64,000 nt of DNA from an uncultured Thermoproteaceae archaeon (lineage in GTDB: Archaea > Thermoproteota > Thermoprotei > Thermoproteales > Thermocladiaceae): NCBI GenBank assembly GCA_964575955.1, contig CAZNTG010000006.1, forward strand, positions 288,001 through 352,000, written 5' to 3'. Of the stretch, positions 3,103-61,747 are shown in pieces. The translations under genes and the position numbers were made by a program. How positions within the stretch are numbered: the stretch's first letter is position 1; each line of letters starts with the position of its first letter. The notes under the pieces are model-generated. The model had not been told where the DNA came from. It saw only the letters and a program-made list of their open reading frames with translations, and made no database searches.

Positions 3103-3150
3103 ATGATGAAACGACGGTAGACAGAAGATGAAGAAAGGTAGAGACACTGA
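3103..3150 (+). ncRNA. C/D box sRNA
   Basis: C ATGATGA 3103-3109, 12-nt guide, D' CAGA 3122-3125, C'-like AGATGAAGA, guide, D CTGA 3147-3150. Confidence 0.75.
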
Positions 3151-3190
3151 TAATCTTAGATTAGAGATATGGAGAAGATATGTGAATTGT

Positions 3191-4033
3191 ATGTCTAAAC
3201 TTACTAACCATGTGAAAGATAGGATAATTAGTAAGAAGTCTATTCTCTGTATTGGCCTCGATCCTGTTCTTCCAAACATTCGTGATAAGTATGTTATTCC
3301 TGAGAAATATTTGAAGTATAGTTCTGAAAGTGATATTATGCTAAATTTCTGCCTTGATATCATAGATTTTACCAGTGATTATGCTGTTGCTTATAAAGTT
3401 AATCTAAACTATGTTTTTGATTTTACGAAGAATTATCATAAGAAGCTTGTAGATTATATACATAAGCATGACTGTATTGCAATTCTAGATTTAAAATTTA
3501 ATGATATTGAAGATACAGCATACGTAGCTATTCACCATATTGCTGAATGTAACTATGATATAATAACATTTAATCCACTCTTAGGTAATTTGTGTAACAT
3601 TGTTAAAATTTGTAAAGATGTTGGAATTAAAATTAGAAATGTTGAAGTTGGTGTTTTAAGTCTAGTACTTACATCAAATCCTGATGCTGTTAAATATCAG
3701 AAGTATGTTAAAATGAGTGAGAAACCACTATACGTACTATTTACTGAAGAAGTTAAGCGATGTGATGCTCTTGGATGTGTTGTTGGAGCTACAGGACATG
3801 TAACTAGTGAAGATATTAAAACTATTAGAAACATAATTGGTGATGATAAAATTATACTATTTCCAGGAATTGGTGTTCAAGGCGGAGATATTGAGAAAGT
3901 TGTTAAGAATGGTGGTAAGCTAATTTTAATAAATGTTGGTAGAGATATAATATATTCCGAAAATCCTAGAGAGAAAGCAAGACAGTATTTAGAAATGTTG
4001 AGAAAATATTACAATTTCAATGAACTATTCTAA
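3191..4033 (+). CDS. pyrF: Orotidine 5'-phosphate decarboxylase
   Basis: LCIGLDP, AYK, LDLKFNDI, VVGAT and PGIGVQGG motifs. Start uncertain: the track ATG at 3128 lies inside the sRNA, so ATG 3191 was chosen. Confidence 0.88.
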   Translation: MSKLTNHVKDRIISKKSILCIGLDPVLPNIRDKYVIPEKYLKYSSESDIMLNFCLDIIDFTSDYAVAYKVNLNYVFDFTKNYHKKLVDYIHKHDCIAILDLKFNDIEDTAYVAIHHIAECNYDIITFNPLLGNLCNIVKICKDVGIKIRNVEVGVLSLVLTSNPDAVKYQKYVKMSEKPLYVLFTEEVKRCDALGCVVGATGHVTSEDIKTIRNIIGDDKIILFPGIGVQGGDIEKVVKNGGKLILINVGRDIIYSENPREKARQYLEMLRKYYNFNELF

Positions 4034-4283
4034 ATATGACAACTTTTCTACAATAGTCAAAATCTATAACTTTCTCAATCTTGAGTTTTATACCAAAATC
4101 CTCAGCTTCATATACAATATCTTCAATCCAATCATACACACCACATGTATCACAGAAAGAACCTTCAAAATTGATAATTACAACATCATCTCTCATCTCT
4201 AACACCTCTGCTCTAGCTTCAGGACTTCTATACATATTATATTGCTTTACCACTTCAGTAATCTTGGAATATAAGTCAAACAT
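4017..4283 (-). CDS. Hypothetical protein with NifU-like CxxC motif
   Basis: FEGSFCDTCG motif; TATA-like element about 25 nt upstream. Confidence 0.65.
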   Translation of the reverse strand: MFDLYSKITEVVKQYNMYRSPEARAEVLEMRDDVVIINFEGSFCDTCGVYDWIEDIVYEAEDFGIKLKIEKVIDFDYCRKVVIFRIVH

Positions 4284-4388
4284 TATCGGTAGTCTAGATT
4301 GCTAAGTTTAAAAATCTAACTATGTATATATGGCTAATATACCTGATGTAGAGTCCCACTTTTAAACTATGACTAAAATCTAGATTTA

Positions 4389-5048
4389 GTGAAAGATAGA
4401 TCTACAAAAGCTGACACAATAAATGTTAAGGATTTTTACCTATCTAAAGGTATATGTCACTATGTTAAAGTTGTATTTAAAGATTCTGGAAAGTCCTCTC
4501 AGATGTTCAATATATTGAGGAAAATTTTCAAAAATTATTACAATGAGGCAGACATAGTAGCTGTTGGTAAGGGTAAGATAATTGTCAAGAAGGATGGTGC
4601 AGATTTTCTAAAGATATTTCTAGATGGTGATAATATAGAGTTCTACTATACTGAAGATTTTAAGAATGTTGTTGATAGTATATTAGATATATTGAATATA
4701 GTTAAGGATGGTCTTATAATGTTTATAAAGTGTAGATGTAAGAGAAGTGGTGTTAGAGTATGTTTTGAGAATATTCCAAAATTCATGTTTGATAAGTTTA
4801 AGATTTTGAAATATGATAAAGGTTGTAGAGATTATGATAATGTTAATATTGCTATTCAAGATGTTGTTAATATAGTATTTTCAGCATATCTCCATGGAAT
4901 ATATACTTTAGATGGTTTTAAGATATTGAGAAATATTAATGATGTTAATAGTTTTATTAAGAGATGTTGTGATAATTCTAAATGTGGAAATTCTAATTAT
5001 AGAAGTTCAAGCTTGTGTAGAGGTAGCTCTATACTAGACTATTTCTAG
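4389..5048 (+). CDS. Hypothetical protein
   Basis: 219-aa ORF with native codon style; no motif recognised. Confidence 0.55.
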   Translation: MKDRSTKADTINVKDFYLSKGICHYVKVVFKDSGKSSQMFNILRKIFKNYYNEADIVAVGKGKIIVKKDGADFLKIFLDGDNIEFYYTEDFKNVVDSILDILNIVKDGLIMFIKCRCKRSGVRVCFENIPKFMFDKFKILKYDKGCRDYDNVNIAIQDVVNIVFSAYLHGIYTLDGFKILRNINDVNSFIKRCCDNSKCGNSNYRSSSLCRGSSILDYF

Positions 5049-5099
5049 GTCTTAGGAGAAAATTTATATGTTAGTATGTGTGTCTGTGTTGAGTAATAT

Positions 5100-5555
5100 A
5101 TGGTTAGAAGATTTGAGAAGAAGTCTAGATATTTACGTGGTTGGAGAACTCACTCATGGGGTAGAGTTGGTCAGCATAGAAAGTCTGGTAGTTCAGGTGG
5201 TAGAGGTAAATCAGGTAGACATAAGCATAAGTGGACTTGGGTATTAGTATACGATCCAGACTACTTCGGTAAGCATGGATTTGTACAACCACCACCACTT
5301 GTAAAGCAGTGGCGTGAAATTAATGTTGGTGAGTTAGATAAGATTATTGAAGATCTTGTTAAGAAAGGTTTAGCAGAATTTAAAGATGGTAAATATTATG
5401 TAGATTTACTAAAACTTGGATATAATAAACTGCTTGGTGAAGGTAAAGTTACACATCCAATAGTTGTTAAGGTACCTGCAGCTACTAGAAATGCAGAAGA
5501 GAAGATACGTGCAGCAGGTGGAGAAATAATCTTAGTTAAGGAAGTACTACACTAA
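5100..5555 (+). CDS. rpl15: 50S ribosomal protein uL15
   Basis: RG.RTH.WG..GQHR..G..GGRG, KLLGEG and EKI.AAGG motifs. Confidence 0.95.
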   Translation: MVRRFEKKSRYLRGWRTHSWGRVGQHRKSGSSGGRGKSGRHKHKWTWVLVYDPDYFGKHGFVQPPPLVKQWREINVGELDKIIEDLVKKGLAEFKDGKYYVDLLKLGYNKLLGEGKVTHPIVVKVPAATRNAEEKIRAAGGEIILVKEVLH

Positions 5556-5559
5556 ACTT

Positions 5560-5853
5560 CTACTGTTCTTCACTATTTTTAGATTCTTCAACAACTGTGA
5601 TATTACTTTCCTGTTCTTCTTCATGTTCAACTTCTTCAATTCTAGATTTAATAATCTTAACAAATTCTGAAACCTCTTCTCTCAACTTTCTAACTTCTTT
5701 AATAAGTTCTTCAATTTGTGGAATTTCAACAACAATCTTCATCTCTCTAATCTGTATTTGAGATGTTGTTATATTCTTACTATCACCTGTCTTAGACTTT
5801 TTCAACTCCATCAATATCTCTGCAAGATCTTTCTTTCTTTTCTGCATAAACAT
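5560..5853 (-). CDS. Hypothetical coiled-coil protein
   Basis: 97-aa charged ORF filling the gap between rpl15 and the deacetylase gene. Confidence 0.55.
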   Translation of the reverse strand: MFMQKRKKDLAEILMELKKSKTGDSKNITTSQIQIREMKIVVEIPQIEELIKEVRKLREEVSEFVKIIKSRIEEVEHEEEQESNITVVEESKNSEEQ

Positions 5854-5920
5854 CAGGATAGTTTTTAGATTACGTGTATATATATTAAACGATTAAAATA
5901 GTCATTACAAGATCTAGTCT

Positions 5921-6991
5921 ATGAAGAAGATTGTAATTATTTACGATGATGCATTTCTAAGACATACACCACCAAAATTTCACTGTGAAAATCCTGCTAG
6001 AGTTAAAGCAATAATGGAATGTTTAAGAAGTTTTGTACCTAGCAATCTCATAATTAAGCCTAGATATGCAGATATTGAAGATCTATGCATGGTTCATAGT
6101 AGAGAGTATGTAGATTTGATGATGAGATTTTTCGAACATGGTGGACTATCATACATAGATGGTGACACATACATATCTGATGGTACTAGAGATGCAGCAT
6201 TAGCAGCTGCTGGTTCAGCAATTACTGGAGTTGAAATGATAATTTCAGAAGGTGTAAAATGCTTTTACGCACCTGTAAGACCTCCAGGACATCATGCTGG
6301 TATCTCAGGAAGAGCATTAACTGCACCAACACAAGGATTTTGCATATTTAACAACATTGCAATTGGTGCAGAGTATGCTATACGTAGAGGTATTAGAAAA
6401 GTTGCAATTATTGACATAGATGCACATCATGGAAATGGTACTCAAGAAATATTCTATCACACTAGTAAAGTATTATACATAAGTATTCATCAAGATCCAT
6501 TAACACTATATCCAGGAACTGGATTTATAACTGATGTAGGTATTGGAGATGGTGAAGGATATAATGTAAACATACCACTACCACCAGGATCTGGAGATGA
6601 CGTATATCTAGAAGCTTTAGAGAACATAGTATTACCAATACTAAGACAGTATAGACCAGAGATAGTGCTAGTGTCGTTAGGATTTGATGCACATATAAAT
6701 GATCCACTAACACAACTTGAAGCTTCATTAAACACATATGAAGAACTATACCTAATACTGAAGAAGATGGTTGATAGTGGAGAGATTCGTGGTGTAGGAT
6801 TTCTACTAGAAGGTGGGTACGATACTAAAGTACTATCTATAGGTAGTGAAATACTTGTAAAGATATTTCTAGAACAGGAGTATAAAAATCCTGAAGATAG
6901 AACAGAGAGTGGATTAAATACAAAATCCAGAGCAAGAAAAGTATTGAAAAAAGTTGTAGAAGTACATTCAAAATATTGGAATCTAAAGTGA
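5921..6991 (+). CDS. Histone deacetylase-family (Zn-dependent) deacetylase
   Basis: RPPGHHA, GFCIFNN, DIDAHHGNGTQ, GFDAH.DP and LEGGY motifs. Confidence 0.93.
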   Translation: MKKIVIIYDDAFLRHTPPKFHCENPARVKAIMECLRSFVPSNLIIKPRYADIEDLCMVHSREYVDLMMRFFEHGGLSYIDGDTYISDGTRDAALAAAGSAITGVEMIISEGVKCFYAPVRPPGHHAGISGRALTAPTQGFCIFNNIAIGAEYAIRRGIRKVAIIDIDAHHGNGTQEIFYHTSKVLYISIHQDPLTLYPGTGFITDVGIGDGEGYNVNIPLPPGSGDDVYLEALENIVLPILRQYRPEIVLVSLGFDAHINDPLTQLEASLNTYEELYLILKKMVDSGEIRGVGFLLEGGYDTKVLSIGSEILVKIFLEQEYKNPEDRTESGLNTKSRARKVLKKVVEVHSKYWNLK

Positions 6992-7027
6992 AAAATCTAA
7001 AAAGTCTTAGAAAGTAGGGCAGTTTGT

Positions 7028-7210
7028 ATGAAGATAGATAAGAGATGTAGAATATGTCCAATAGGTCCTAGAGAATGTATAAAGAGGATAATAGAGAAAT
7101 ATTGGCTTAGACCTAGAAAGTTAAGACCAGCACATCCATGGACAATTGAGTGGTGTCCATATTTGAGAGGATTTAGACCACAATTACAGAAACAGGAAGC
7201 TACTCAATAG
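7028..7210 (+). CDS. Small basic Cys-containing hypothetical protein
   Basis: 60 aa with CRIC..C...H...C; native codon usage; fills the gap downstream of the deacetylase. Confidence 0.45.
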   Translation: MKIDKRCRICPIGPRECIKRIIEKYWLRPRKLRPAHPWTIEWCPYLRGFRPQLQKQEATQ

Positions 7211-7217
7211 GTAGAAG

Positions 7218-8702: not shown

Positions 8703-8707
8703 CAGCT

Positions 8708-9040: not shown

Positions 9041-9089
9041 TCAGCTTCGGCAACGTTCATCAGTTGTCAGTTTCACGTGCCATCATCAT
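9041..9089 (-). ncRNA. C/D box sRNA
   Basis: Minus strand ATGATGA-TGGCACGTGAAA-CTGA-CAA-CTGATGA-ACGTTGCCGAAG-CTGA, canonical spacing, intergenic. Confidence 0.88.
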
Positions 9090-9135: not shown

Positions 9136-9188
9136 TCTATACTTGTTATATATTCTCTTCATGGATCTGCTCGTGAGACATTCATCAT
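9136..9188 (-). ncRNA. C/D box-like sRNA lacking a canonical D box
   Basis: ATGATGA-ATGTCTCACGAG-CAGA-TCC-ATGAAGA, then AT-rich sequence with only TAGA; TTATAA about 25 nt upstream. Confidence 0.5.
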
Positions 9189-11601: not shown

Positions 11602-11610
11602 GTAAAATAC

Positions 11611-23284: not shown

Positions 23285-24001
23285 TTATCCAGTCTTTCTA
23301 GCTATAACCATTGCATGTGCAACATCGTAAGGTTCTAGATGTACCATATCTACAATTTCAAATCCTCTCTCCTTTAGATGATCTATCTCTCTCTTAAATG
23401 TCTCATCAGGAGCTTTTGTGACATCTATAGACATTGCCTTAATTACTAGCATTACATGTCCATGTTTTCTTAAGAATACGTCAGCATTATCTGCAACTAT
23501 CTTAGCTTGGAATGGCTGTGCAACATCTATATATACAACATCTACTTTCTTGACAATTGATACATACTGCTCAGGATATCTAGCATCTGCAAGTATTGGT
23601 ATACAGTTTGTTCTTCCTTGATCAATTATTTTCTCCATGAATTCTCTAAATACTCTAGCTGAGAACTCTACTGCATATACAATACCTTCATTACCAATAA
23701 TATCACTTACATGACTTACAGTTGTTCCTGATGCTGCACCTAGGTAGAGAACTTTAGTACCTCTCTTAATAGGCATCTCCTTAAGACCATTCAATATTGC
23801 TGCTGCAAGCTTGCTCCTATATGGATTCCATACTCTATACTCTTCACCCTCCCATTGAACTAGAGGTTCACCATAGACTCTCCTACCGGGAGTTAGGTTC
23901 TTTGTAGCTATTCTCTCACTACCATCTTCAAAAGATATGAAGTAGACACCTTCAAACCTATCGTGAGGTCTAACATTTACAGGCTTTATTAGTGATGACA
24001 T
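23285..24001 (-). CDS. flpA: Fibrillarin rRNA/tRNA 2'-O-methyltransferase
   Basis: [31 protein letters not shown] and DVAQP motifs. Confidence 0.96.
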
Positions 24002-24868: not shown

Positions 24869-25171
24869 ATGTCATCATCAAAGTCTAGTAAATCTCAATC
24901 TTCAAGATCTAAGAGTAGTAAGAAGGAGAAGCTTCTACTATCTAGAGTAATGGAGCATGAACTTGTACCTCATGCAGAGATTGTTCCTAAAGATGAAGCT
25001 AAGAAAATTCTTAAACAGATGAATGCAGCACCATGGCAAATACCTTGGATTCGTGCTAGTGATCCTCTAGTTAGGATGATTGGTGCTAAACCTGGAGATA
25101 TTATTAAAATTGTTAGAAAATCACCAACAGCTGGTGAAGTTGTTGTTTATAGAATTGTTGTTCCAGGTTAG
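24869..25171 (+). CDS. rpoH: RNA polymerase subunit Rpo5 (H)
   Basis: [17 protein letters not shown] and [18 protein letters not shown] motifs. Confidence 0.95.
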
Positions 25172-25800
25172 ACCTCTACGATAACTCTAACAGGAGATGC
25201 AGTTGCATTAACTATCTTTAGAGGAATTGCATAATACCTGACTCTCCTATTTAACACATGTTTTAGATTGCATAGATTTTCGATTATGGGTATATTATTT
25301 GATAGTAGTATTTTATGTGCTTCAAATGTTGTAGATTCTGCAGGATCTATACTTGGAGAATCAATACCTACAAGACTAGGTTTAAGTGATACTAGAAATT
25401 CTGCAGCATCTTTACTAATACCAGGACATCTATACACATACTCATCTCTACCATACATGTCTTCCCAACCTGTGTATAGAAATATTGCGTCTCCCTCTCT
25501 ATATTCTACATTTTTTATACAACTTTCAATATCTCTACCAGTTACTACATGTCTATTTGATACATCTATAACTACTGCATATCCAATAAATTTTTCAATA
25601 CTAATCTTATCAATACTTAAACCATTTTCAATAAAGTGTAATGGTGCATCCATATGTGTAGCTACGTGAGTTATTGTATATATAACTTCAGATCTAAAGC
25701 CATGAATATCATGTTTAGCCCATGTCAATATCTTAACTTTTGGATATAGTGGAAATACTTGTGTATCTTCACATATCTCTCTACTCAAATCTAAGTACAT
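25168..25800 (-). CDS. Cyclase/kynurenine formamidase family hydrolase
   Basis: [25 protein letters not shown] and ASPVR motifs. Confidence 0.88.
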
Positions 25801-25906
25801 GAGTACATTCTAGAACTTGTAAGATTTTATTAAATACCTCAAGTACTTAAACATGCATATTCTCAACATGAGTTAGCTATATAAGTAGAAGTGTTCTATC
25901 CGTACA

Positions 25907-27328
25907 ATGGTCTTTCGTGAAAAACTTCCAAGTACTACAATACTCACATTTAACGATGTCATTCTCCTTCCAGGATTTACAGATGTAGACCCGGTAGAGG
26001 TTGATGTTAGTACTCAAGTATCAACATCTGTGAAGATAAATATTCCAATAGTATCATCACCGATGGATACAGTAACTGAGCATGAACTTGCAATATCATT
26101 AGCTAGACTTGGAGGTATTGGTATAGTTCATAGAAATGTAAGTATTGATGAACAGGTTGAGATGGTTAAGAAGGTTAAAGATGCACCACAATATCCTGTA
26201 TATCTCTGCTATGTTGAATCAACTTCAAAATGTAGAGACGCACTCAACATGATGAGAGAGTTATCTATAGACTACATCCCTATTGTTAAGGATGGTATTG
26301 TTATAGGATTTCTAAATAAGATTGATGCATTAAAATATCCTGATGATAATGTAGTAGAACATGCTAGAAGACCTGTAATAGCTAATCTCTATGAAGATCC
26401 TCAAAGTATTAAAAGGAAGATGTTAGAAAATGATGTCGATACTGTAGCTATAGTAGACTCATCAGGAAAGTTTGTTGGAATTGTAACAATATGGAATTTA
26501 GATTCAAATAAACCATTTACACCATGTGTAGATTCAGAAGGTAGATTGAGAGTTGGTGCTGCTATATCTCCATTTGATATTAATAGAATAAAGAAGCTTG
26601 ATAAGTATGTTGATGTTCTCGTTCTAGATGTTGCAAATGCTGCACATATGAAGATAATATCATCTATAAAGAATATATGTAAAGAAATTTCATCAGACCT
26701 AGTCGTAGGTAATGTAGGTACTTATGAGAGTGCTGTAGAGATTATTACTAGAGTTGAGAAGATTGATGGTTTTAGAGTTGGAATTGCTAGTGGATCAATA
26801 TGTAGTACTGGAGTTGTTACAGGTGTTGCAGCACCAACACTTTGGGCTACTGCACAGGTTGCTGATGCAGCTAGAGATTATGGATTGAAAGTTCCAATAA
26901 TTGCTGATGGTGGTATTAAGAGTCCTGGAGATGCTGTTAAAGCATTTGCTGTAGGTGCATGGTGTGTAATGCTTGGTAGAGTTCTAGCTCAAGCATATGA
27001 ATCTCCAAGTCCAATAATAACTATAGGAGATAGAAAGTATAAGTATTATAGAGGTATGGCTAGTGAAGGTGCTAGAGTTAGGAGATTTGCAGTTGATAGA
27101 TATAGTAGAAAGGTTAAAGATATATCTGAAGGTGTTGAAGGTCTAGTACCGTATAGAGGAACCTTAGAGCAGATTATTAAAGAATTTGTGAGTGGTATAC
27201 AAGCATCTATGGGATATATAGGTGCTAGATCAATACCTGAATGTTGGGAAAAAGCTAAACTAGGACTTGTAACATCTCTAGGGAGGAGAGAAGTAGAGCC
27301 ACATAGCATATATCTAAGAATTGAATGA
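25907..27328 (+). CDS. guaB: IMP dehydrogenase
   Basis: SSPMDTVTE, CBS pair, GSICST, IADGGI and YRGMAS motifs. Confidence 0.93.
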   Translation: MVFREKLPSTTILTFNDVILLPGFTDVDPVEVDVSTQVSTSVKINIPIVSSPMDTVTEHELAISLARLGGIGIVHRNVSIDEQVEMVKKVKDAPQYPVYLCYVESTSKCRDALNMMRELSIDYIPIVKDGIVIGFLNKIDALKYPDDNVVEHARRPVIANLYEDPQSIKRKMLENDVDTVAIVDSSGKFVGIVTIWNLDSNKPFTPCVDSEGRLRVGAAISPFDINRIKKLDKYVDVLVLDVANAAHMKIISSIKNICKEISSDLVVGNVGTYESAVEIITRVEKIDGFRVGIASGSICSTGVVTGVAAPTLWATAQVADAARDYGLKVPIIADGGIKSPGDAVKAFAVGAWCVMLGRVLAQAYESPSPIITIGDRKYKYYRGMASEGARVRRFAVDRYSRKVKDISEGVEGLVPYRGTLEQIIKEFVSGIQASMGYIGARSIPECWEKAKLGLVTSLGRREVEPHSIYLRIE

Positions 27329-27373
27329 AGAGCCTTACGGGCTCTGAAATGTGATGAAGATTAGGATTGCAGA
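27325..27373 (+). ncRNA. C/D box sRNA overlapping the guaB stop codon
   Basis: ATGAAGA-GCCTTACGGGCT-CTGA-AAT-GTGATGA-AGATTAGGATTG-CAGA. Confidence 0.7.
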
Positions 27374-27452
27374 TCATAAACATCTTGTTTACATTAAATG
27401 CACAGATCAATAATACATTTATATCCTGACACTCCTAATCGTGTAGGTATAG

Positions 27453-28136
27453 ATGAACAACTTGAAGATATGTATTGAGAAATTGAGAAATGGTGAACCA
27501 ATACTAATATACGATTTTGATAGTAGAGAAGGTGAAGCTGATATAGTATTCAGAGCTTCAACTATAGATCCTGATAAGATAAAGTTGATGAGAAAAATTG
27601 CAGGTGGTTTAATATGTTTTGTAACTAGCTACGATATAGGTGTTAAGCTCGGACTTGACTTACAGACAAGAATTTTTCAAAAATTAGACGGTATGAATAG
27701 ACTGTTAAAAAAGCCTAAGTATGGTGATGAACCAGCATTTTCAATATGGGTTAACCATGTAGATGTGAGTACAGGTATTAGAGATGTTGACAGAGCATTA
27801 ACAATAAGGAGATTGGCAGAGGTTGTGAAGATTGTTGAAAATGGAGATGTTGAAAATGGTAGAGAAGTGTTCTATAGAGAATTCTACACGCCAGGTCATG
27901 TACCAATACTCTTAGGTAGAATTGGCAAACGTTGGGGTCATACAGAACTTTCATTAATAATTTCAAAAATTGCAAATATTGAACCAGCACTTGTAATATG
28001 TGAGGTTTTGTATGAATCTAATACAGTTCCAACATTTGAAGAATATTTAAAAATTGCAAAAGATTTAAATACTATAATTATTAGAGGAAGTGATATAGTT
28101 AGACTTTATAGAGAACTAGAGAGTGTTAAGATATGA
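27453..28136 (+). CDS. ribB: 3,4-dihydroxy-2-butanone 4-phosphate synthase
   Basis: DSREGEAD, GGLIC, TGI.D.DRA.T, PGHV, GHTE and CE motifs. Confidence 0.92.
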   Translation: MNNLKICIEKLRNGEPILIYDFDSREGEADIVFRASTIDPDKIKLMRKIAGGLICFVTSYDIGVKLGLDLQTRIFQKLDGMNRLLKKPKYGDEPAFSIWVNHVDVSTGIRDVDRALTIRRLAEVVKIVENGDVENGREVFYREFYTPGHVPILLGRIGKRWGHTELSLIISKIANIEPALVICEVLYESNTVPTFEEYLKIAKDLNTIIIRGSDIVRLYRELESVKI

Positions 28137-36212: not shown

Positions 36213-37437
36213 AGATTTAAAGTATTACAAAATTTTGAAATCTATAGAAAAACTATGTAAAATATCAAATCCAGAGATAGGTGATATAGTTGATAGAGCA
36301 TTATCAGGTAGAGAATTGTATAGAGAAGATTGTATCAAGATGCTAAGTAGTGATGATCCTGTTGATATTGAACTCTTAAGATTATGTGCAGATTATGTTA
36401 GGTGGATTCTATGTGATGATTATGTAACATTTGTATGTAATAGAAATATAAATTTTACAAATGTATGTGTCATAGGTTGTAAATTCTGTAGCTACTCTGT
36501 ACCTCCTGATAGTCCAAGAGGATATGTATATACTATTGACGAAGTTAGGAGAAAGGTGTTGGAGGGATTGAAAGTTTATGGTATAACTGAAGTATGTCTT
36601 CAAGGTGGTATTAATCCAAAGCTAGGTCTAGACTACTATATAAAAATTTTAAATTGTATAAAAAGTATAGATTCTAAAATTCATATTCACGCATTCTCGC
36701 CACAGGAAATATATTACATATCTGTTAGAGAGGGTATCAAAATTAGAGAGCTTTTAAAAATACTTAGAGAAAATGGACTTGACTCAATACCTGGAACTGC
36801 TGCAGAGATATTGCATGATGATGTGAGAAAGACTATATGTCCTAATAAGATTAGTACATCGAAGTGGATAGAGATAATTAAGGAAGCTCATAGTCTAGGC
36901 ATTAGAACAACATGTACAATAATGTATGGACATGTTGAAAGTGTTGAACATGTTGCACATCACTTAGATATTCTTAAGAATATTCAAAAGGAGACAGGTG
37001 GATTTACAGAACTTGTACTACTACCATACATACATTATAATACTAGACTGTATAGAGAATGTGACTGTAGACCAGGATCATCCTCGATATACGATATTAA
37101 GATATGTGCCACTTCTAGAATATATCTTGCACCATATATAAAGAACATACAGGTATCATGGGTTAAGTTAGGTAGAAAATTTGCACAATACTTACTAACA
37201 TGTGGAGCTAATGATCTCGGTGGTACTCTAATTGAAGAACATATATCACATGCCGCTGGTGCTTTTGAAAGATATATGATTAGTAGAGAAGAATTTATAG
37301 AATTGATAATTAATATCGATAGAATACCTGCTGAAAGAACAACACTATACAAGATAATTAGGGTATATTATCAGAGCGGGAATAAATCATCAATTATCAG
37401 TGGTACAACCGGGTCATCACTCAGTACAGTATGTTAA
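36193..37437 (+). CDS. CofH/MqnC-family radical SAM enzyme
   Basis: NRNINFTNVCVIGCKFC, PGTAAEIL, NIQVSWVKLG and GANDLGGTL.EE motifs. Confidence 0.85.
   Translation: MLRKVNRDLKYYKILKSIEKLCKISNPEIGDIVDRALSGRELYREDCIKMLSSDDPVDIELLRLCADYVRWILCDDYVTFVCNRNINFTNVCVIGCKFCSYSVPPDSPRGYVYTIDEVRRKVLEGLKVYGITEVCLQGGINPKLGLDYYIKILNCIKSIDSKIHIHAFSPQEIYYISVREGIKIRELLKILRENGLDSIPGTAAEILHDDVRKTICPNKISTSKWIEIIKEAHSLGIRTTCTIMYGHVESVEHVAHHLDILKNIQKETGGFTELVLLPYIHYNTRLYRECDCRPGSSSIYDIKICATSRIYLAPYIKNIQVSWVKLGRKFAQYLLTCGANDLGGTLIEEHISHAAGAFERYMISREEFIELIINIDRIPAERTTLYKIIRVYYQSGNKSSIISGTTGSSLSTVC
37371..37420 (-). ncRNA. C/D box sRNA antisense to the 3' end of the cofH-like gene
   Basis: GTGATGA-CCCGGTTGTACCA-CTGA-TAA-TTGATGA-TTTATTCCCGCT-CTGA. 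Confidence 0.88.
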
Positions 37438-41252: not shown

Positions 41253-41302
41253 TCAGCTGCGGTGCTCCTCTTCACTTATCTGAGTGGGGTAAGACTCATC
41301 AC
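41253..41302 (-). ncRNA. C/D box sRNA downstream of rps28e
   Basis: GTGATGA-GTCTTACCCCACT-CAGA-TAA-GTGAAGA-GGAGCACCGCAG-CTGA. Confidence 0.87.
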
Positions 41303-41316
41303 AGTATTATAGTTTT

Positions 41317-41583
41317 TTATCTAACTGTTAATCTTCTTGCTTCTCTCTCAGTCTCTCTTAACATTAGTATGTCTCCTACTCTTACAGGTCCTTTAACGTT
41401 TCTTGTGATAACTCTACCCTTATCTCTACCTTCTAATATTCTAACTCTAACTATCGTTACTTCTCCAGCTATACCTGTCCTACCTAGTATCTGTATTACC
41501 TGTGCTGCAACAGCATCTTCATAAGGACTAAACTTGACTTCTTGTTGTTCAACTTGTTCAATATTTATCTCTTCACTACTCAT
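41317..41583 (-). CDS. rps28e: 30S ribosomal protein eS28
   Basis: GRTG..GEVT and [24 protein letters not shown] motifs. Confidence 0.96.
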
Positions 41584-41635
41584 ACAATGTCTATGATTTT
41601 AAGAAGGGTTATTAAGGATTTGTATTTTTAGAAAA

Positions 41636-42130
41636 CTACTTCTTTCTAGCTGCCTTTTTAGCAGCAGCTTTTTCAGGTGCTCCTGCTGCTGGTGTTATTG
41701 GGTTAAGTCCTGCCTTTACTCTAATCTCATTTATCTTCTCAATTAGCTGTTCTAGATCTTGTGCTGCCTGTCCTGGATCTATAACGCATGCTGATGCTGC
41801 CTGTGTTTCTATTCCAGCAGCTTTTCCAAGTCTCTCCTTACTTGGAACATATACATATGGTACACCTCTCTCTTCACATAGTAGTGGTAGATGTGCTACA
41901 ATTTCAGGTGGATCAACATCCTCTGCTATCAATACGAGCTTTGCAAGTCCTCTCTCTATAGCTTTCGTAGTCTCATTAGTACCTTTCTTAATCTTACCTG
42001 TCTGTCGAGCTATTGAAAGTATTTCATAAGCTTTTTCAGCTATTTCAGGAGGTACAGCAAATCTTACATAAAATGGCTTTCCAGGTGGTGGATTTGCATA
42101 GAATGTCTTTGGATCTATCGTTAGTGACAT
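41636..42130 (-). CDS. rpl7ae: Ribosomal protein eL8/L7Ae (K-turn binding)
   Basis: [14 protein letters not shown] and [15 protein letters not shown] motifs. Confidence 0.96.
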
Positions 42131-43492: not shown

Positions 43493-43540
43493 GTGATGAA
43501 TAGATGGGCCACTGATAGATGAAGAATTGGCGGTCTCTGA
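43493..43540 (+). ncRNA. C/D box sRNA whose D box overlaps the ade start codon
   Basis: GTGATGA-ATAGATGGGCCA-CTGA-TAG-ATGAAGA-ATTGGCGGTCT-CTGA(TG). Confidence 0.87.
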
Positions 43541-45306: not shown

Positions 45307-45308
45307 CA

Positions 45309-47747
45309 TCAAGAGCATATGTATACTCTAGCTTCATTATCAATTAATTCACAATTATCTCCTCTAGGTTCACCAATCTTTACATCTCTAACCTTGTGCA
45401 TTATCTTTATTTCATAAGTTATTGGTTCTAACTTCTCATCAACATATAGTTCTACATCAAGACTTTGTGCAAGACTCATACCTCTCCTATTCTTATATAC
45501 CCATACTGCTCTATTCGTCTTTATAAATGGCTCAAGCATTATTATATACTTTCTATCAAATTCTATAGGTAGTTTATCTTCAATTATCTGTCTATGAACT
45601 GACTCATTGTATAGTTTTCTCCATATGTAGTCTGTTATAAATGGCATTATTGGTGCTAATAGTTTCGTGATTGTCCTTAATACTGTGTGAAGTGTGAACC
45701 ATGCACCTCTCTGTTCAAGTTCTGAGAATTGTCTATCTCTATTATATGCACGTGCCTTAACAGCTTCAATGTAGTGATCAGCAAATATATGCCATGTGAA
45801 GTCGTACAGTATGTGAGCTGGTTCATACACATCAAATTTTGAATATGCTTCAACACACTTCTTCAATACTTCTTCAAGTTTTGCAAGTATCATCATGTCT
45901 AGTGGTGTTAGTTTATAGTTATCTTCTACATTTGGAAATTGTGATATAAATCTTGCAATATTCCATAACTTAATAACAAAACTATGACCTGTCTCTATTA
46001 ACTGTGGTATATACCTATAGTCACTTCCTAGCTTAGCTGCTGCAGCAGCCCAAAATCTAACAGCATCTGCACCATATTTCTCGACTGGTGGTATTGGGTC
46101 AATTATGTTTCCTTTAGATTTATGCATAGCTTCACCTTTCTCATCTAATCCCATTCCTGATATTCTGACATATCTAAATGGTGGTTTTCCATATAGTAGA
46201 TATGCTCTGAGTACTGAGTAGTATAGCCATGTTCTAATTATGTCATATCCCTGTGGTCTAATTATTGAATGTGGATATACTTTCTCAAATACTCTAATCT
46301 CAGGTTTTGTATATCCAGAAGCATACATCCAAGATATCGATGAGTCAAACCATGTATCTAATACTCTATCCTCACCTACAAGTTTACCATCTCTACATTT
46401 CTCTCTAACTTCAGGTGGTGGTTCATCTTTCCAAGGTCTATAATACTTTCCAGGATTTGGTAATACTACTTCTCTCTTACCTGTCTTCTCATCAATACAA
46501 TACCATATCGGTATCTCTGTTGCATAGTATCTACGTCTAGATATTGGCCAATCGAATTCTAGAGACTTTATCCAATCTATCAAAATTTTCTTATAATCCT
46601 CAGGATAGAACTCCATCTCATTTTCAACAATTTTAATTAACTCATCCTTAAATTCTAACTGCTTTAAGAAGAATTCTCTAGTAACTATAATTTCTACAGG
46701 CGTCTTACATCTCCAACACACAGGAACGTTGTGTATTATCTTCTCCTGCTTTGTAAGTAGTTCTCTACTCTTCAACTCTTCAATTATTGCTTTTCTAGCA
46801 TCTCTAATATACATACCTCTAAACTTTCCAGCATATTCATTCATTCTTCCTGATTCATCAATTACGATTCTTATTGGAAGTTTTAGTTCATTAACTATTG
46901 CTAAATCTCTAACATCACCGAAAGTACATATCATTACTAGTCCTGTACCAAATTCAGGTTTTGCTGCTGGATGCTCTAGTATTGGTACTCTATGTCCAAA
47001 TATTGGAACTATTGCATGTTTATCTTTTAGATGTTTATATCTTGAATCTTGTGGATTATATATTACTGCTACACATGCAGGTAGTAGTTCTGGTCTTGTT
47101 GTAGCAATTACAATATCTTCGCCTGTCTCTTCAACTCTAAACTTAATATAGTTCAATGTTGTAGATTCTTCAACATACTCTATCTCAGCTTCTGCAAGTG
47201 CTGTTTTACATCTTGGACACCATAATGTGGGTCTTTCAGCCTCATATATCAATCCACGATTCCACAATTCTATGAATGTCTTTTGAGTTATTGTACGATA
47301 TTCTTCACTGTCAGTACCATTTTTCCAATATGTGAATGAGAGACCCCATCTCTCTAATATTTCTAAATTCTCTTTCTCATATTTATCTAACAATTCTCTA
47401 CATAGCTCAATAAATTTCTCTCTAGGTATTTCATGCATAGTTATGTTATACATCTTCTCAACCTGAACTTCTACAGGTAGTCCATTTCTATCTGTGTAGA
47501 ATGGAAATATCACATTATATCCTCTCATTCTGAAGAATCTGGCAATCATGTCTATCTGTGCGTAGTGTGCAACACCTCCAATATGCATTCTACCACTCAT
47601 GTATGGTGGTGGTGTATCTATGACTATTGTTTTTCTATTTGGATCAATCTCAATCTTGTATAGATTTTCTTCTTTCCAAATTTTCAATAGTTCAACTTCT
47701 TTAGATATATCCCACCTCTTCTCAACTAGCTTTGGCTTAAATGACAT
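45309..47747 (-). CDS. valS: Valyl-tRNA synthetase
   Basis: DTPPP...HIGG, ATTRPE, DW.ISR and AMHKSKGN motifs. Confidence 0.92.
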   Translation of the reverse strand: MSFKPKLVEKRWDISKEVELLKIWKEENLYKIEIDPNRKTIVIDTPPPYMSGRMHIGGVAHYAQIDMIARFFRMRGYNVIFPFYTDRNGLPVEVQVEKMYNITMHEIPREKFIELCRELLDKYEKENLEILERWGLSFTYWKNGTDSEEYRTITQKTFIELWNRGLIYEAERPTLWCPRCKTALAEAEIEYVEESTTLNYIKFRVEETGEDIVIATTRPELLPACVAVIYNPQDSRYKHLKDKHAIVPIFGHRVPILEHPAAKPEFGTGLVMICTFGDVRDLAIVNELKLPIRIVIDESGRMNEYAGKFRGMYIRDARKAIIEELKSRELLTKQEKIIHNVPVCWRCKTPVEIIVTREFFLKQLEFKDELIKIVENEMEFYPEDYKKILIDWIKSLEFDWPISRRRYYATEIPIWYCIDEKTGKREVVLPNPGKYYRPWKDEPPPEVREKCRDGKLVGEDRVLDTWFDSSISWMYASGYTKPEIRVFEKVYPHSIIRPQGYDIIRTWLYYSVLRAYLLYGKPPFRYVRISGMGLDEKGEAMHKSKGNIIDPIPPVEKYGADAVRFWAAAAAKLGSDYRYIPQLIETGHSFVIKLWNIARFISQFPNVEDNYKLTPLDMMILAKLEEVLKKCVEAYSKFDVYEPAHILYDFTWHIFADHYIEAVKARAYNRDRQFSELEQRGAWFTLHTVLRTITKLLAPIMPFITDYIWRKLYNESVHRQIIEDKLPIEFDRKYIIMLEPFIKTNRAVWVYKNRRGMSLAQSLDVELYVDEKLEPITYEIKIMHKVRDVKIGEPRGDNCELIDNEARVYICS

Positions 47748-51962: not shown

Positions 51963-52010
51963 TCAGCTTAGCCCAGCTCTTCACTATTCAGACCTCACAA
52001 GCATCATCAC
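51963..52010 (-). ncRNA. C/D box sRNA, probable tRNA-targeting
   Basis: GTGATGA-TGCTTGTGAGGT-CTGA-ATA-GTGAAGA-GCTGGGCTAAG-CTGA. Confidence 0.88.
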
Positions 52011-55859: not shown

Positions 55860-55911
55860 ATAGCAATGATGTTGAAGATATATTTAAGTATGGATACGTT
55901 AACATAGCACT

Positions 55912-56810: not shown

Positions 56811-56845
56811 GTATATACTAGAGTTACAGGATTTATATAATAGGT

Positions 56846-57313: not shown

Positions 57314-57315
57314 AG

Positions 57316-58695
57316 TTAATGTTTAAACTTTGGATGTATTGTCCAATGACCTGTAACTATATATGCAACAGCCATGCTAAGTGCTATTAGTGGTGTATAT
57401 GGCCATGTCTCTGTCATTCCAGATACTATCAATATAGATGCTACAGGTATCCTATATACACATCCTAGTAGTGTTGCAGCACCTGCAATTGTCAATATTG
57501 ATAGTAGTGCTTGTGATGCTACTGTAGGTGCTAGTAGTTTGAAAAGTAGGAATGTTAGTAGTCCAATATATCCACCAGTTACTAACGTTGGTGCAACCAT
57601 ACCACCGCTAGCTCCTGATGCTATTGTTATTGATGTTGCAATTATTTTAAATACAACAACTAGGAACAGTATCATTATTGCATATGTTGTTGGGTTAAGT
57701 CTATTTATTGAATCTGCAAAATAGTGTATCAGACTGTTAAGCCATGTATATCCGGTAGTTATTGATAGTGGTGTTGTTGCACCTATAAATGCTACAGCTA
57801 TTGCAGCTATTATAGGTGGTATTATTGGACTGTACTTAAGTTTGAAGAATGATGCTTTAAATAGATGATATACTTCTGCATATACTCTAGTTAATGCACC
57901 AACAATAACTCCTAGAAATATGAATGATGCTATAACCCATGGATTTGTAATTGCTAGATGTAGACTAATACCTGCTAGTGATATTACAGGAGATATTACA
58001 CCACCTGAAAGTAGTACTGTGGTAAGGTAGCTTACTATGGATGCTACTAGTGATGGGTATAGTACTTCAAGTATCTCAAACTCAATTTCATAAACTCTCA
58101 AAAACTCTATACCAAATACAGTACCTCCAAGTGGTGATGATAATGCTGCAGATATTCCAGATGCAACACCTGCAACATATGCAACTTTTAGATCTCTAAG
58201 ATCCATCCTAAATATCTTCTCAACAACACTACTAGCACTAGCACCTATAAGTACTGCAGGACCCTCCTTACCGACACTAGCACCTAGACTGAGTGTTGGT
58301 AATGTTGCTATAACTTTCATAAATGGTACTCTAAGTCTAAATAGGTATCTCCTATTTGCATAGTTGTAAAATGCTATATCACAACCTGAACCTCTAGCTT
58401 CTTCACATATCTTTGTAACAATTAGATAACTTAATAGATGACCAACAACTAGTAGTGGAAGTATTTTCATAAATATGCTTAATGAGAATGTGAATACGAA
58501 TGGTGGTTTAGTACCTTGATTAAGTATTGGTAATACAACTCTACTCAATATTATACTAGAAGCCTTACCGAGTATCCAGACTAGAGAACCTATTATAACT
58601 CCCATCACTGCAGATATTATGAACCATCTAACGATGTATGAACGAGTTACACCATGTATCAGATAGCTCTCTATAGTCTTCAGGAAACTACTCAC
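57316..58695 (-). CDS. CLC-family chloride channel/antiporter (no CBS domains)
   Basis: GSG, GKEGP, SPLGG..FGIE and SGGMVAP motifs. Confidence 0.88.
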   Translation of the reverse strand: MSSFLKTIESYLIHGVTRSYIVRWFIISAVMGVIIGSLVWILGKASSIILSRVVLPILNQGTKPPFVFTFSLSIFMKILPLLVVGHLLSYLIVTKICEEARGSGCDIAFYNYANRRYLFRLRVPFMKVIATLPTLSLGASVGKEGPAVLIGASASSVVEKIFRMDLRDLKVAYVAGVASGISAALSSPLGGTVFGIEFLRVYEIEFEILEVLYPSLVASIVSYLTTVLLSGGVISPVISLAGISLHLAITNPWVIASFIFLGVIVGALTRVYAEVYHLFKASFFKLKYSPIIPPIIAAIAVAFIGATTPLSITTGYTWLNSLIHYFADSINRLNPTTYAIMILFLVVVFKIIATSITIASGASGGMVAPTLVTGGYIGLLTFLLFKLLAPTVASQALLSILTIAGAATLLGCVYRIPVASILIVSGMTETWPYTPLIALSMAVAYIVTGHWTIHPKFKH

Positions 58696-58850
58696 TTCTT
58701 CAGTATGTTATTTTGAGAAAATTTTAACTATATCCTAAAAGGCAGGTTTGGCAGAGAGATGTGAGACACTTATGTCTATACATGCCTAACATAGTCTAAT
58801 CTCTACTTAGAGATAGATTATAAAGGTGGTGTAGTTTAGTATTGTTGATG

Positions 58851-58900
58851 ATGATGATGCTTGGGCTTAATGATCTATGATTAACTTCACGCAGGACTGA
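58851..58900 (+). ncRNA. C/D box sRNA overlapping the hisI 3' end antisense
   Basis: ATGATGA-TGCTTGGGCTTA-ATGA-TCT-ATGATTA-ACTTCACGCAGGA-CTGA; TTATAAA at 58818-58824. Confidence 0.8.
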
Positions 58901-59252
58901 TCTTAACATTGTCAAAACATGACCTATATCCTAGGTGGCATGCGGGTCCTCTAGGTTTTACTATTAGAAGTACAGAATCTCTATCGCAGTCAATTCTAAA
59001 TTCTAGAACTTCTTGAACATTTCCTGATGTCTCACCTTTCATCCACAACTTCTTTCTTGTTGTAGACCAGAAGTGTGCTAATCCTGTTGTTAATGTCTTT
59101 ACTACAGCTTCCTTATTCATGTAGGCTACCATTAAGACATCTTTAGTTTCATAATCCTGTACTACTGCTATTACAGTATTGTCAATATGTCTATACCATA
59201 GTGATTCTGCAATTTCTCTAGCTTTATCTTCTGGAAGTGTTAATCTCTTCAT
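58887..59252 (-). CDS. hisI: Phosphoribosyl-AMP cyclohydrolase
   Basis: LWMKGETSGN, DCDRD and ACHLG..SCF motifs. Confidence 0.94.
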   Translation of the reverse strand: MKRLTLPEDKAREIAESLWYRHIDNTVIAVVQDYETKDVLMVAYMNKEAVVKTLTTGLAHFWSTTRKKLWMKGETSGNVQEVLEFRIDCDRDSVLLIVKPRGPACHLGYRSCFDNVKISPA

Positions 59253-59257
59253 ATTCT

Positions 59258-60136
59258 TTATGGTACAATTTTCTCTATGTTTAGTACAAGTATATCTTTA
59301 ACACCTAAACTCTTCAATTTCATAATAACGTCAGGAAGTTCATCTTCACTAACTACAGTAATTACTTCCCACATCTCTACACCTCTCCTAGACTCTACTT
59401 TAGCAACTGTAGGTCCCTCAAGTGCTGGTACAACTTTAAGTACTTGATCTAACACATTTCCTGGAACATTCATCATTAGTAATCTTCTACCTTGAGATTC
59501 TAAAACTGCTTTTACAAGTGTTACAAATTTATTAATTACATACTTAGCATCATTATCAACTTCTTCTCTAGTCATTATCAATTTTGCTTCTGATTCAAGT
59601 ATTGTATATATTGGTTTAAGTCCATGAATTCTCAATGTTGTTCCTGTAGACATGACATCTACTATAGCGTCTGCAGCTCCTAACATCGGCATAACTTCTA
59701 CACTTCCAGAAACTTTGACAATTCTAACCTTCTTACCAATACTAGTAAAGAACTTTCTAGTAATATTGACATATTTAGTAGCTATTCTTGCATTATCAGG
59801 AAGCTGTTCAGGACTTTCAATCTTAGATTTCTCAGGTACTGCAAGAACAATCTTACCTCTACCATACCCAAGACCTAGCAAAATCTCAACGTCAGCCTCA
59901 GATTCATACACAAAGTCTAGACCAGTAATACCCATTATAGCTGCACCAGTCTCTACAATACTTGGAATATCTTCAGGTCTAAGTCTAACAAGACTAAGAC
60001 ATGGCCAGCTAGTCTGAACTATCAATGCTCTATCATCTGTTGAAGATAGTTTAAGACCAACATTAGACAATAACCATAGTGTAGGCTCTACAAGTCTACC
60101 TTTACTAGGTACTGCAAGTAGGTAAGTTTTAGACAC
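59258..60136 (-). CDS. hisG: ATP phosphoribosyltransferase
   Basis: AVPSKGRL, GITGLD, IATKY, GSVE and DVMSTGTTL motifs; start moved to GTG 60136 (track start 60181 leaves only 4 nt to hisD). Confidence 0.92.
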   Translation of the reverse strand: MSKTYLLAVPSKGRLVEPTLWLLSNVGLKLSSTDDRALIVQTSWPCLSLVRLRPEDIPSIVETGAAIMGITGLDFVYESEADVEILLGLGYGRGKIVLAVPEKSKIESPEQLPDNARIATKYVNITRKFFTSIGKKVRIVKVSGSVEVMPMLGAADAIVDVMSTGTTLRIHGLKPIYTILESEAKLIMTREEVDNDAKYVINKFVTLVKAVLESQGRRLLMMNVPGNVLDQVLKVVPALEGPTVAKVESRRGVEMWEVITVVSEDELPDVIMKLKSLGVKDILVLNIEKIVP

Positions 60137-60155
60137 AGGATATTGAGAGTCTTCT

Positions 60156-60163
60156 TTTAAATA
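60156..60163. promoter_or_regulatory. Central bidirectional TATA box between hisG and hisD
   Basis: TTTAAATA lies about 20-23 nt from both start codons. Confidence 0.55.
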
Positions 60164-60185
60164 TAGATTACTATCCAACACATAA

Positions 60186-61403
60186 ATGAGATTAAGTAAG
60201 AATGAGATAGTTAAAGTTAGGAGAAGATTAAATATTGAAGAGTATGTAGATAAGGTTAGAGATATACTGTATAAAGTTCGTAGAGAAGGTGATAAAGCAA
60301 TAATAGAGATTACAGAGAAGATAGATAAGATAAAGATAGAGAAGATTGAGATAGGTAGAGAATATATAAGAAACTTATCTAGTAAAGTATCTCAAGATAT
60401 TAAAGACATTTTAAAAAGAATTGTAGAAAGAATTTGGAATTTCAATGCAAAATTATTACCAAAGAACGAAATTATAGTAAGTGGTAGTGAGATTGCAAAA
60501 TTGAAGTATGTACCAATAGAGAGAGTTGGAATATACATACCTAGAGGATACATATCAACATTAATTATGTTAACAACCATTGCAAAAGTCTCAGGTTGTG
60601 AAGATATAGTAGTATTCACACCACCAATAAATGAAGAATATTTAATACAACCTGAAATGGCATACATATTAGAATTATTAAAAATATATAGAGTATATGT
60701 TGGTAATGGTGTTGCAGGTATTGGAGCATTAGCATATGGTACAGAGACAATACCAAAAGTCTTCAAAATTTACGGTCCAGGAAACATATATATACAATCT
60801 GCAAAATATTTAGTATCTTCTGAAGTAGATATTGATGGAATTGAAGGACCTACAGAGCTCGTACTATATGTAGATGATACTGTTAGCGATAGAGATATTA
60901 AATGTGCTATACTTGACGTAATTGCAGAACTTGAACATGGTGTACATAGTATTGCTATAGTACTATCAAATAGTGAAAATATATTAAACATGTTCGAAGT
61001 TGAGTATAGAAAAGCTAAGGAGAATTTAGAAAATATTGGAGAATTATATACAGTTAAGATTGATAATTTAGAAGATGTTGTCAATATAATAAATGAGATA
61101 GCTCCTGAGCATGTCGAAATTATATCTAAAAAGTATAGAGAAATATCTAGTAGAATTACAAATGCAGGAATTATATCAATAAATACTCCATGTACATATC
61201 TAGACTACTCAGCAGGACCATGCCATGTATTGCCAACATCAGGATTTGCAAAGTCTAGAGGTACAATAACACCGTTAGATTTTATGAAGAAGATTATAAT
61301 ATATGAGGGGTATAGTATAGATATGCTAAATCTAGGCCAATTTTTAGCAAAGATTGAAAATATGAAATATCATGAAGAAAGTCTGAGATGTAGACTAGTA
61401 TGA
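60186..61403 (+). CDS. hisD: Histidinol dehydrogenase
   Basis: GIYIP, GPGN.Y, GPTE, APEH and DYSAGPCHVLPT motifs. Confidence 0.9.
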   Translation: MRLSKNEIVKVRRRLNIEEYVDKVRDILYKVRREGDKAIIEITEKIDKIKIEKIEIGREYIRNLSSKVSQDIKDILKRIVERIWNFNAKLLPKNEIIVSGSEIAKLKYVPIERVGIYIPRGYISTLIMLTTIAKVSGCEDIVVFTPPINEEYLIQPEMAYILELLKIYRVYVGNGVAGIGALAYGTETIPKVFKIYGPGNIYIQSAKYLVSSEVDIDGIEGPTELVLYVDDTVSDRDIKCAILDVIAELEHGVHSIAIVLSNSENILNMFEVEYRKAKENLENIGELYTVKIDNLEDVVNIINEIAPEHVEIISKKYREISSRITNAGIISINTPCTYLDYSAGPCHVLPTSGFAKSRGTITPLDFMKKIIIYEGYSIDMLNLGQFLAKIENMKYHEESLRCRLV

Positions 61404-61702
61404 CAAGTCTAGAATTTCTACTAAAACTTGAAGAAGTTATAGATAGTAGAATAAGATCGAAATCTGAAACTAGCTATACTTGGAGATTAGTATCTCAAGG
61501 AATTGAAAAAGTTTGTAAGAAAGTTTTAGAAGAGGCAGGTGAGGTTGTTATAGCAGTATTGAAAGAAGGTAGAGATAGAGTAGTTGAAGAATGTGCAGAC
61601 TTAATATACCATCTGCTAGTCCTACTGAGAGTAAATAACATAAGTATTGTAGACGTAGTTAAAATACTAGAGAAGAGACATATTGAGAAGACACAAAAGT
61701 GA
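61400..61702 (+). CDS. hisE: Phosphoribosyl-ATP pyrophosphohydrolase
   Basis: SYT..L, KKV.EEAGE and E.ADL.YH motifs. Confidence 0.93.
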   Translation: MTSLEFLLKLEEVIDSRIRSKSETSYTWRLVSQGIEKVCKKVLEEAGEVVIAVLKEGRDRVVEECADLIYHLLVLLRVNNISIVDVVKILEKRHIEKTQK

Positions 61703-61747
61703 TGATGTTTTCGCGCTCTGATAGATGAGGAAGGGTCAATTTGCTGA
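61699..61747 (+). ncRNA. C/D box sRNA between hisE and hisH
   Basis: GTGATGA-TGTTTTCGCGCT-CTGA-TAG-ATGAGGA-AGGGTCAATTTG-CTGA; the hisE stop TGA lies within box C. Confidence 0.87.

Follow-up and report, generated by a model that had tools for sequence, protein, structure and literature searches.

A large and regular set of predicted C/D box guide RNA genes in a small, AT-rich archaeal genome

The DNA analysed here, a window of 64,000 nucleotides (nt) from an uncultured archaeon (genome G000, contig C6:288001-352000), carries nine units that are very probably archaeal C/D box small RNA (sRNA) genes of about 50 nt, belonging to a genome-wide set of some 150-165 such genes, and a tenth unit that is best read as a truncated copy retaining only the D' half. 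The identity of these units as C/D guide sRNAs had been proposed from the letters of the window (hereafter the original prediction) and is supported by the architecture of their boxes, by complementarity of their guides to ribosomal RNA (rRNA) under the N+5 rule, by guides that are conserved in congeners and by the presence of the genes for the core proteins. The units are new members of a well-known class of RNA; what is noteworthy is their number and regularity in a small AT-rich genome. The assembly consists of 15 contigs totalling 1.52 Mb with a guanine plus cytosine (GC) content of 33%, an estimated completeness of 94.7% and a contamination of 0.5%. At the protein level its fibrillarin shares 86-91% identity with the fibrillarins of uncultured Thermoproteales or Thermoproteaceae metagenome-assembled genomes, 76-80% with those of Vulcanisaeta and Caldivirga and 71-75% with those of Thermoproteus and Pyrobaculum. 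The organism belongs to a genus of Thermoproteales that is uncultured and has Vulcanisaeta and Caldivirga among its relatives. The 36 intron-less transfer RNA (tRNA) genes have a mean GC content of 70.7% (range 65-76%) against 33% for the genome, and ten further tRNAs appear once introns are permitted, giving a total of 46. Thermophilic organisms typically have tRNA GC contents this high, and the value of 71% points to a high-temperature lifestyle.

All nine complete units lie where the original prediction placed them. A strict regular expression ([AG]TGATGA-N9-14-NNGA-N2-9-NTGANGA-N9-14-CTGA) recovers seven of the nine at exactly the predicted starts and has no match when the window is shuffled 200 times with its dinucleotide composition preserved (mean 0.0, maximum 0), while a position-weight matrix (PWM), trained on the genome's own strict matches and permitting every spacing, gives a score of at least 24 in the window to exactly these nine loci (24.2 to 39.1). 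The seven strict units are 3103-3150(+) (PWM 38.8), which reads C box ATGATGA, 12-nt D' guide, D' box CAGA, C' box ATGAAGA, 12-nt D guide and D box CTGA, followed by 9041-9089(-) (34.7), 37371-37420(-) (35.5), 41253-41302(-) (39.1), 43493-43540(+) (38.7), 51963-52010(-) (38.9) and 61699-61747(+) (35.9). The other two units have their boxes, but in variant form: 27325-27373(+) (PWM 25.0) has the terminal pair C ATGAAGA and D CAGA, and 58851-58900(+) (PWM 24.2) has degenerate internal boxes (D' ATGA, C' ATGATTA). The terminal boxes are exact in eight of the nine units, the ninth being the co-varying ATGAAGA/CAGA form of 27325(+), and internal D' and C' boxes are present in all nine, with guides of 11-13 nt and a D'-C' spacer of 2-3 nt. 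The partial unit, which had been put at 9136-9188(-), is real as an arrangement of C box, 12-nt D' guide, D' box CAGA and C' box ATGAAGA at 9156-9188(-) (PWM 19.1); its D guide and D box are absent, and it therefore lacks the terminal pair of boxes.

Across the whole genome the strict expression finds 98 loci. The matrix finds 160 loci at a score of at least 24, compared with a mean of 2.2 in six shuffled genomes and with 8 in the reversed, uncomplemented genome, and 120 loci at a score of at least 30, where both nulls give 0. An nhmmer profile built from the 98 strict loci returns 119 at E <= 1 and 103 at E <= 0.1. From these figures the repertoire is estimated at roughly 150-165 genes, and at no fewer than about 120. 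The mean length from C to D among the 160 loci is 50 nt; the D' guide is 12 nt long in 97 of the 160 and the D guide in 106, and 89 loci have a D'-C' spacer of 3 nt. The guides are GC-rich, with a mean of 0.49-0.53 compared with 0.33 for the genome; in low-scoring candidates the value is 31-36%. The dense layer of guide genes that had been claimed for the window is borne out by its nine units but is not particular to it: 64-kb windows of contig C6 hold a mean of 6.2 loci (range 2-11), and 6% of them hold nine or more. The window is therefore rich rather than a hot spot, and the whole genome is dense, with approximately one gene per 9.5 kb.

Given that motifs containing TGA are common in AT-rich DNA, and that the window holds 17 other box-like candidates, AT-rich and with low scores (PWM 12-19.3), it might be supposed that the units are chance assemblies of box-like motifs, or else copies of a mobile repeat. 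This is extremely improbable for three reasons: first, chance would not produce 160 loci where the nulls give 2.2 and 8, nor seven strict matches where 200 shuffles give none; second, the guides of the units are GC-rich and complementary to rRNA, as described below; and third, the 160 loci contain only one clear pair of paralogues, 51963(-) in the window and C6:590109-590156(-), which refutes a repeat family. The low-scoring candidates themselves (17 loci) were rejected as AT-rich and without a match to rRNA, the exception being the truncated unit at 9156-9188.

The internal boxes of the 160 loci are not only present but matched to each other. Position 2 of D' and position 5 of C' co-vary (A/A 54, T/T 63, T/A 22, A/T 5; Fisher p 6e-16), such that D' CTGA accompanies C' NTGATGA at 63 loci, D' CAGA accompanies C' NTGAAGA at 54, and CCGA accompanies NTGAGGA at five. 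Co-variation of this kind would follow from a kink-loop (k-loop) in which the two bases lie opposite one another. The same exchange occurs at the ends of the units: a terminal D box CAGA is found at 4 loci genome-wide and all 4 have the C box NTGAAGA. Within the window, the A/A form is internal in 3103(+) and 41253(-) and terminal in 27325(+). Neither UGAAGA nor CAGA is present as a string in the available text of Lui et al. 2018 (PMC6009581), and a literature search for variants at the 3b/3n position of the kink-turn (k-turn) gave no match.

Comparison with congeners separates the units sharply from their surroundings. When three parts of the window were compared by BLAST with six congeners, coding DNA aligned at 65-80% identity, and isolated islands of 48-56 nt with 81-98% identity stood exactly at the sRNA coordinates, among them those of 9041(-) (83-86% in three congeners), 41253(-) (92-98%) and 43493(+) (88-90%). 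A scan of the fetched loci yielded 30 orthologue rows that represent nine of the ten units, and the tenth, 9041, is covered by its BLAST islands. Over 29 of these rows (the 30 less one row of paralogue type), identity is 96-97% in the guide cores, 95-100% in the C and D boxes, 46% in the D'-C' spacer and 33-37% in the 30-nt flanks, which cannot be aligned; because the rows were chosen on the similarity of their guides, the figure for the guides is inflated, a bias that does not affect the BLAST islands. The orthologues of 3103(+) have the same D guide in three congeners. Both guides of 37371 are identical at 11 of 11 positions in three congeners, with a differing D'-C' spacer, and those of 43493 are kept in three. 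Orthologues were likewise found for 41253 in four congeners, for 51963 in four (plus a copy of paralogue type), for 61699 in three and for 58851 in three, where the internal boxes are degenerate as well. At 27325 the D' guide is kept in two congeners and the D guide is different.

Neither small subunit (SSU) nor large subunit (LSU) rRNA was found in the G000 assembly, nor was rRNA found in the six congeners or in the uncultured relatives G008, G020 and G022, and guide targets were therefore read on 16S and 23S rRNA from five genomes that belong to other genera of the family, with the N+5 rule (the nucleotide to be methylated is the one paired with the fifth base of the guide, counted upstream from D or D') and nine contiguous pairs as criteria, as in Dennis et al. 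2015 and Breuer et al. 2021. Of 320 guides tested, 67 form at least ten contiguous Watson-Crick pairs that include the N+5 position, compared with 6 in the antisense-strand control; at nine or more contiguous pairs the numbers are 128 and 39. Both guides of a unit fall within 100 nt of each other on rRNA at 62 of the 160 loci, where 200 random re-pairings of guides give a mean of 18 and a maximum of 29, and this is the double-guide behaviour described in the available parts of Dennis et al. 2015 (PMC4644070).

Within the window, six of the nine complete units and the partial unit have at least nine contiguous pairs with this heterologous rRNA. The D guide of 3103(+) pairs at ten of ten positions with LSU rRNA in two family relatives, and the D' guide of 9156-9188(-) does so in four of four relatives, at a site 15 nt from that of 3103. 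The D' guide of 27325(+) makes 11 contiguous pairs with LSU rRNA, again in four of four. For 37371(-) the D' guide makes 12 contiguous LSU pairs and the D guide nine plus a G:U pair; for 58851(+) the D' and D guides match LSU sites that lie 10 nt apart in the relatives, making this unit a double guide; and for 61699(+) the D' guide pairs at ten of ten positions with SSU rRNA in three relatives and the D guide at 9.5 of ten on LSU rRNA. The D' guide of 41253(-) has nine contiguous rRNA pairs at an ambiguous site. The D guide of 9041(-) pairs at nine of ten positions with SSU rRNA in four relatives, with one mismatch.

Several points weigh against the identification as rRNA guide genes and have to be set beside this evidence. 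The first two are the heterologous source of the rRNA and the selection of orthologues by guide similarity, both given above. Third, no guide of 9041, 43493 or 51963 reaches nine contiguous pairs with the rRNA of the relatives; the longest runs of the two guides of 43493(+) are 8 and 7. Fourth, among the 46 tRNAs of the genome, with introns allowed, no guide of the window exceeds nine of ten pairs without mismatches or G:U pairs. Fifth, Rfam gives no match in the window at its gathering thresholds. Finally, the promoter profile upstream of the 160 loci has a weak A-rich rise at approximately -36 to -26 that is not decisive.

It is possible that some of the units do not guide rRNA methylation. 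They could instead be orphans or copies in decay, serve as RNA chaperones, or act in antisense as regulators of genes that they overlap at the 3' end. Such a role would suit 43493 and 51963, for which no convincing target was found in the rRNA of the relatives or in the tRNAs of the genome, as well as the D guide of 27325, which is AT-rich, variable between congeners and without a target, and the 9156-9188 unit, which has lost its D half. Two further units lie antisense to the 3' ends of open reading frames (ORFs), 37371(-), opposite a radical-SAM (CofH/MqnC-like) gene, and 58851(+), and 28% of Pyrobaculum guides are without a significant target according to a figure cited in PMC7994747, which was available in part. 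This explanation is nevertheless considered unlikely. Most units have at least one strong match to rRNA, and conservation in three congeners for the guides of 43493 and in four for those of 51963 argues that they have a target, perhaps in rRNA specific to the lineage. A role of 51963 and its paralogue as guides for methylation of the tRNA-Val wobble position was also considered and was rejected, the anticodon loops of tRNA-Val having no complementary sequence.

The reading of the units as C/D guide genes is in keeping with the proteins that the genome encodes. The original prediction had named fibrillarin and L7Ae in the window, and both score above their family cut-offs: fibrillarin, the 2'-O-methyltransferase of the small ribonucleoprotein (sRNP), is encoded at 23285-24001(-) (PF01269, E 8e-105; NF003275, 390 bits, cut-off 339), and L7Ae, the core protein that binds k-turns, at 41636-42130(-) (PF01248, E 1e-30; TIGR03677, 174 bits, cut-off 134.6). 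A second PF01248 gene in the genome is L30e. With Nop5, the product of the only Nop-domain gene of the genome (C3:84191-84874(-), on another contig than fibrillarin), the full core set of L7Ae, Nop5 and fibrillarin is encoded. The genes for fibrillarin and Nop5 adjoin in many archaea; here the neighbours of the fibrillarin gene are those for ribosomal protein S5 and a regulator, and Nop5 is not adjacent.

By analogy with the known members of the class, the units would be transcribed, processed and assembled into sRNPs that direct methylation. A k-turn would arise from the C (RUGAUGA) and D (CUGA) boxes at the ends of the RNA, and a k-loop from the D' and C' boxes inside it. L7Ae would bind both motifs, after which a Nop5 dimer and two copies of fibrillarin would assemble on the RNA. 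Each 12-nt guide would then pair with rRNA, and fibrillarin would methylate the 2'-OH of the nucleotide that the N+5 rule, as defined above, picks out for D or D'. An RNA whose two guides address neighbouring segments of rRNA may in addition aid folding.

Below the Rfam thresholds, archaeal CD-box families are matched by seven of the nine loci and no other RNA class by any of these; the best of these matches is that of 3103 to sR20 (30.5 bits against a threshold of 44), and 9041 matches sR5. The families sR20, sR5, sR2, sR1, sR3 and snoPyro_CD supply the best sub-threshold matches of the seven over the full length of the model, but the scores in the window are 21-30.5 bits against gathering thresholds of 36-45. 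It is largely the guides that define these families, and the guides of the window units differ. The Pyrobaculum families, as far as they are described in the available part of Lui et al. 2018 (PMC6009581), come from the same order, Thermoproteales, and share the dual-guide build of about 50 nt with a k-turn and a k-loop. They also share contexts, namely the stop codon of an upstream gene within the C box, positions antisense to the 3' ends of ORFs, clusters, and units in which one guide is kept while the other drifts. However, no Pyrobaculum family reaches threshold in the window, and by comparison with the same source the internal boxes of G000 are much more canonical, its GC content is 33% and its count per genome is roughly double. 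The sets of Ignicoccus and Methanopyrus (PMC4644070, PMC7994747, each available in part) are of the same RNA class and have a similar proportion of double guides, reported for 262 of 489 there against 62 of 160 here on heterologous rRNA; those sets are verified by RNA sequencing (RNA-seq), whereas the approximately 150-165 genes in the 1.52 Mb of G000 are predicted from sequence only.

The question that remains is how exceptional a repertoire of this size is. The largest published sets are the 128 C/D sRNAs of Ignicoccus hospitalis and the 127 of Methanopyrus kandleri (Table 1 of PMC4644070, and PMC7994747, in the parts available); the same Table 1 gives 88 for Pyrobaculum calidifontis, and the abstract on P. 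oguniense gives 83 predicted C/D sRNAs. A literature search for newer censuses found none. The claim of an unusually large guide repertoire made in the original prediction holds against the published maxima (160 loci, floor 119, against 127-128), and with moderate confidence the repertoire is larger than any published set. That it is larger than those of its relatives is said with less confidence.

For the comparison with relatives, a one-gap pattern (RTGATGA, 34-44 nt, CTGA) was counted, net of a reversed-pattern control, in 98 genomes of the class with a completeness of 80% or more. The net count is 141 in G000 and 135-184 in five congeners, 193 in the uncultured genus g7, whose assembly has duplicated stretches, and 126 in g18; it is about 58-91 in the Vulcanisaeta-like genus g5, 4-43 in the Pyrobaculum-like, intron-bearing genus g6 (22-40 among seven genomes) and at most about 84 in every other genus. 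On contig C3 of the g7 genome G020, sRNA matches are doubled at mirror positions (near 45466/245915 and near 76049/215331), a pattern suggestive of either a large inverted duplication or an artefact of assembly, by which the count of this genome would be inflated. As a genome-wide comparison with other Thermoproteales the result is uneven: the window genus, g7 and g18 stand out, but genomes with degenerate boxes are undercounted.

This unevenness counts against the claim on size, and it raises the possibility that the units are real but the repertoire is not exceptional, with relatives or unsurveyed archaea carrying as many genes whose degenerate boxes escape exact-motif counting. The published Pyrobaculum sets of 88 (PMC4644070, in its Table 1) and 83 are two to three times above the net counts of 22-40 in g6, from which it follows that the pattern undercounts lineages with degenerate boxes, here by two- to three-fold. 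The Vulcanisaeta-like g5, with net counts of 73-91, could hold 150 or more at the recovery rate of g6, and Vulcanisaeta and Caldivirga are not mentioned in the available text of the catalogue papers PMC7994747 and PMC6009581. The contrast between genera is thus in part one of box regularity, and relatives with degenerate boxes may hold far more than was counted. On the other hand, the 160 high-confidence loci of G000 exceed the RNA-seq-based maxima of 127 and 128, and do so in a smaller genome, and among the 98 genomes only the window genus (135-184), g7 (193) and g18 (126) stand out, all others lying at or below about 91. An unexceptional repertoire is judged rather unlikely. The stronger proposal, that this genus and g7, a second uncultured lineage of the order, have the largest and densest archaeal guide repertoire known (approximately 150-190 genes and 300 guides, one gene per 9-10 kb), with rRNA hyper-methylated beyond that of cultured hyperthermophiles and an unusually regular build with U/U and A/A k-loops, is plausible but can only be put forward tentatively.

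The positions of the units relative to genes are varied, and the statement that none of them is in the ORF track is not correct in the sense that not all are clear of ORFs. In addition to the antisense unit 37371, the C box of 27325(+) contains the stop codon of the IMP dehydrogenase gene, and that of 61699(+), a unit between two convergent genes, contains the stop codon of the PRA-PH gene, with its D box abutting the next ORF. Both 3103(+) and 43493(+) hold a possible start codon of the following ORF; in 3103(+) the ATG within the C' box opens an ORF of 301 amino acids. Unit 9041(-) occupies an intergenic spacer and follows the truncated unit in tandem, on its downstream side. Unit 41253(-) lies 14 nt downstream of the gene pair for L7Ae and S28e (S28e at 41317-41583(-)) on the same strand, and the one-strand row of L7Ae, S28e and C/D sRNA (41253-42130(-)) aligns contiguously in congeners; this guide RNA and the gene for the protein that binds it may share a transcript. 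These contexts agree with those described for archaeal C/D genes in the available parts of PMC7994747 and PMC6009581.

The units are also grouped in places. Twenty pairs of neighbours lie within 200 nt of each other in G000, including tandem runs of three, and four convergent pairs have their D boxes 0-7 nt apart (C12:20402-20501, C6:581204-581304, C6:590058-590156 and C9:129229-129334); a convergent pair 1 bp apart is called highly unusual in the portion of PMC6009581 available. The orthologues of the truncated unit are complete in four congeners, with a D guide and CTGA, and in three of these a convergent sRNA gene follows directly. In G000 the 5' half of the unit is intact and AT-rich sequence stands in place of the 3' half; a second copy of its D' guide in an sRNA context was not found in the G000 assembly. 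In two congeners (L041, G006:C3; L042, G003:C128) five sRNA genes lie within about 2 kb in a region syntenic to approximately 25000-28000 of the window, where G000 has one, and in two other congeners an sRNA with different guides occupies the position of 27325. Within the genus the content of guide genes thus turns over quickly.

The kind of RNA described here and its mechanism are those of the textbook, and the interest lies in the scale. C/D sRNA genes are rarely annotated, and as a result approximately 1% of the information in this genome is invisible in standard gene calls. The very regular boxes provide a clean training set for finding C/D genes in other uncultured archaea. If the count holds, the genus would extend the upper known range of RNA-guided rRNA methylation, in a genome of 1.5 Mb and 33% GC, and would offer a natural test case for whether the number of guides tracks the need for stabilisation of rRNA at high temperature.

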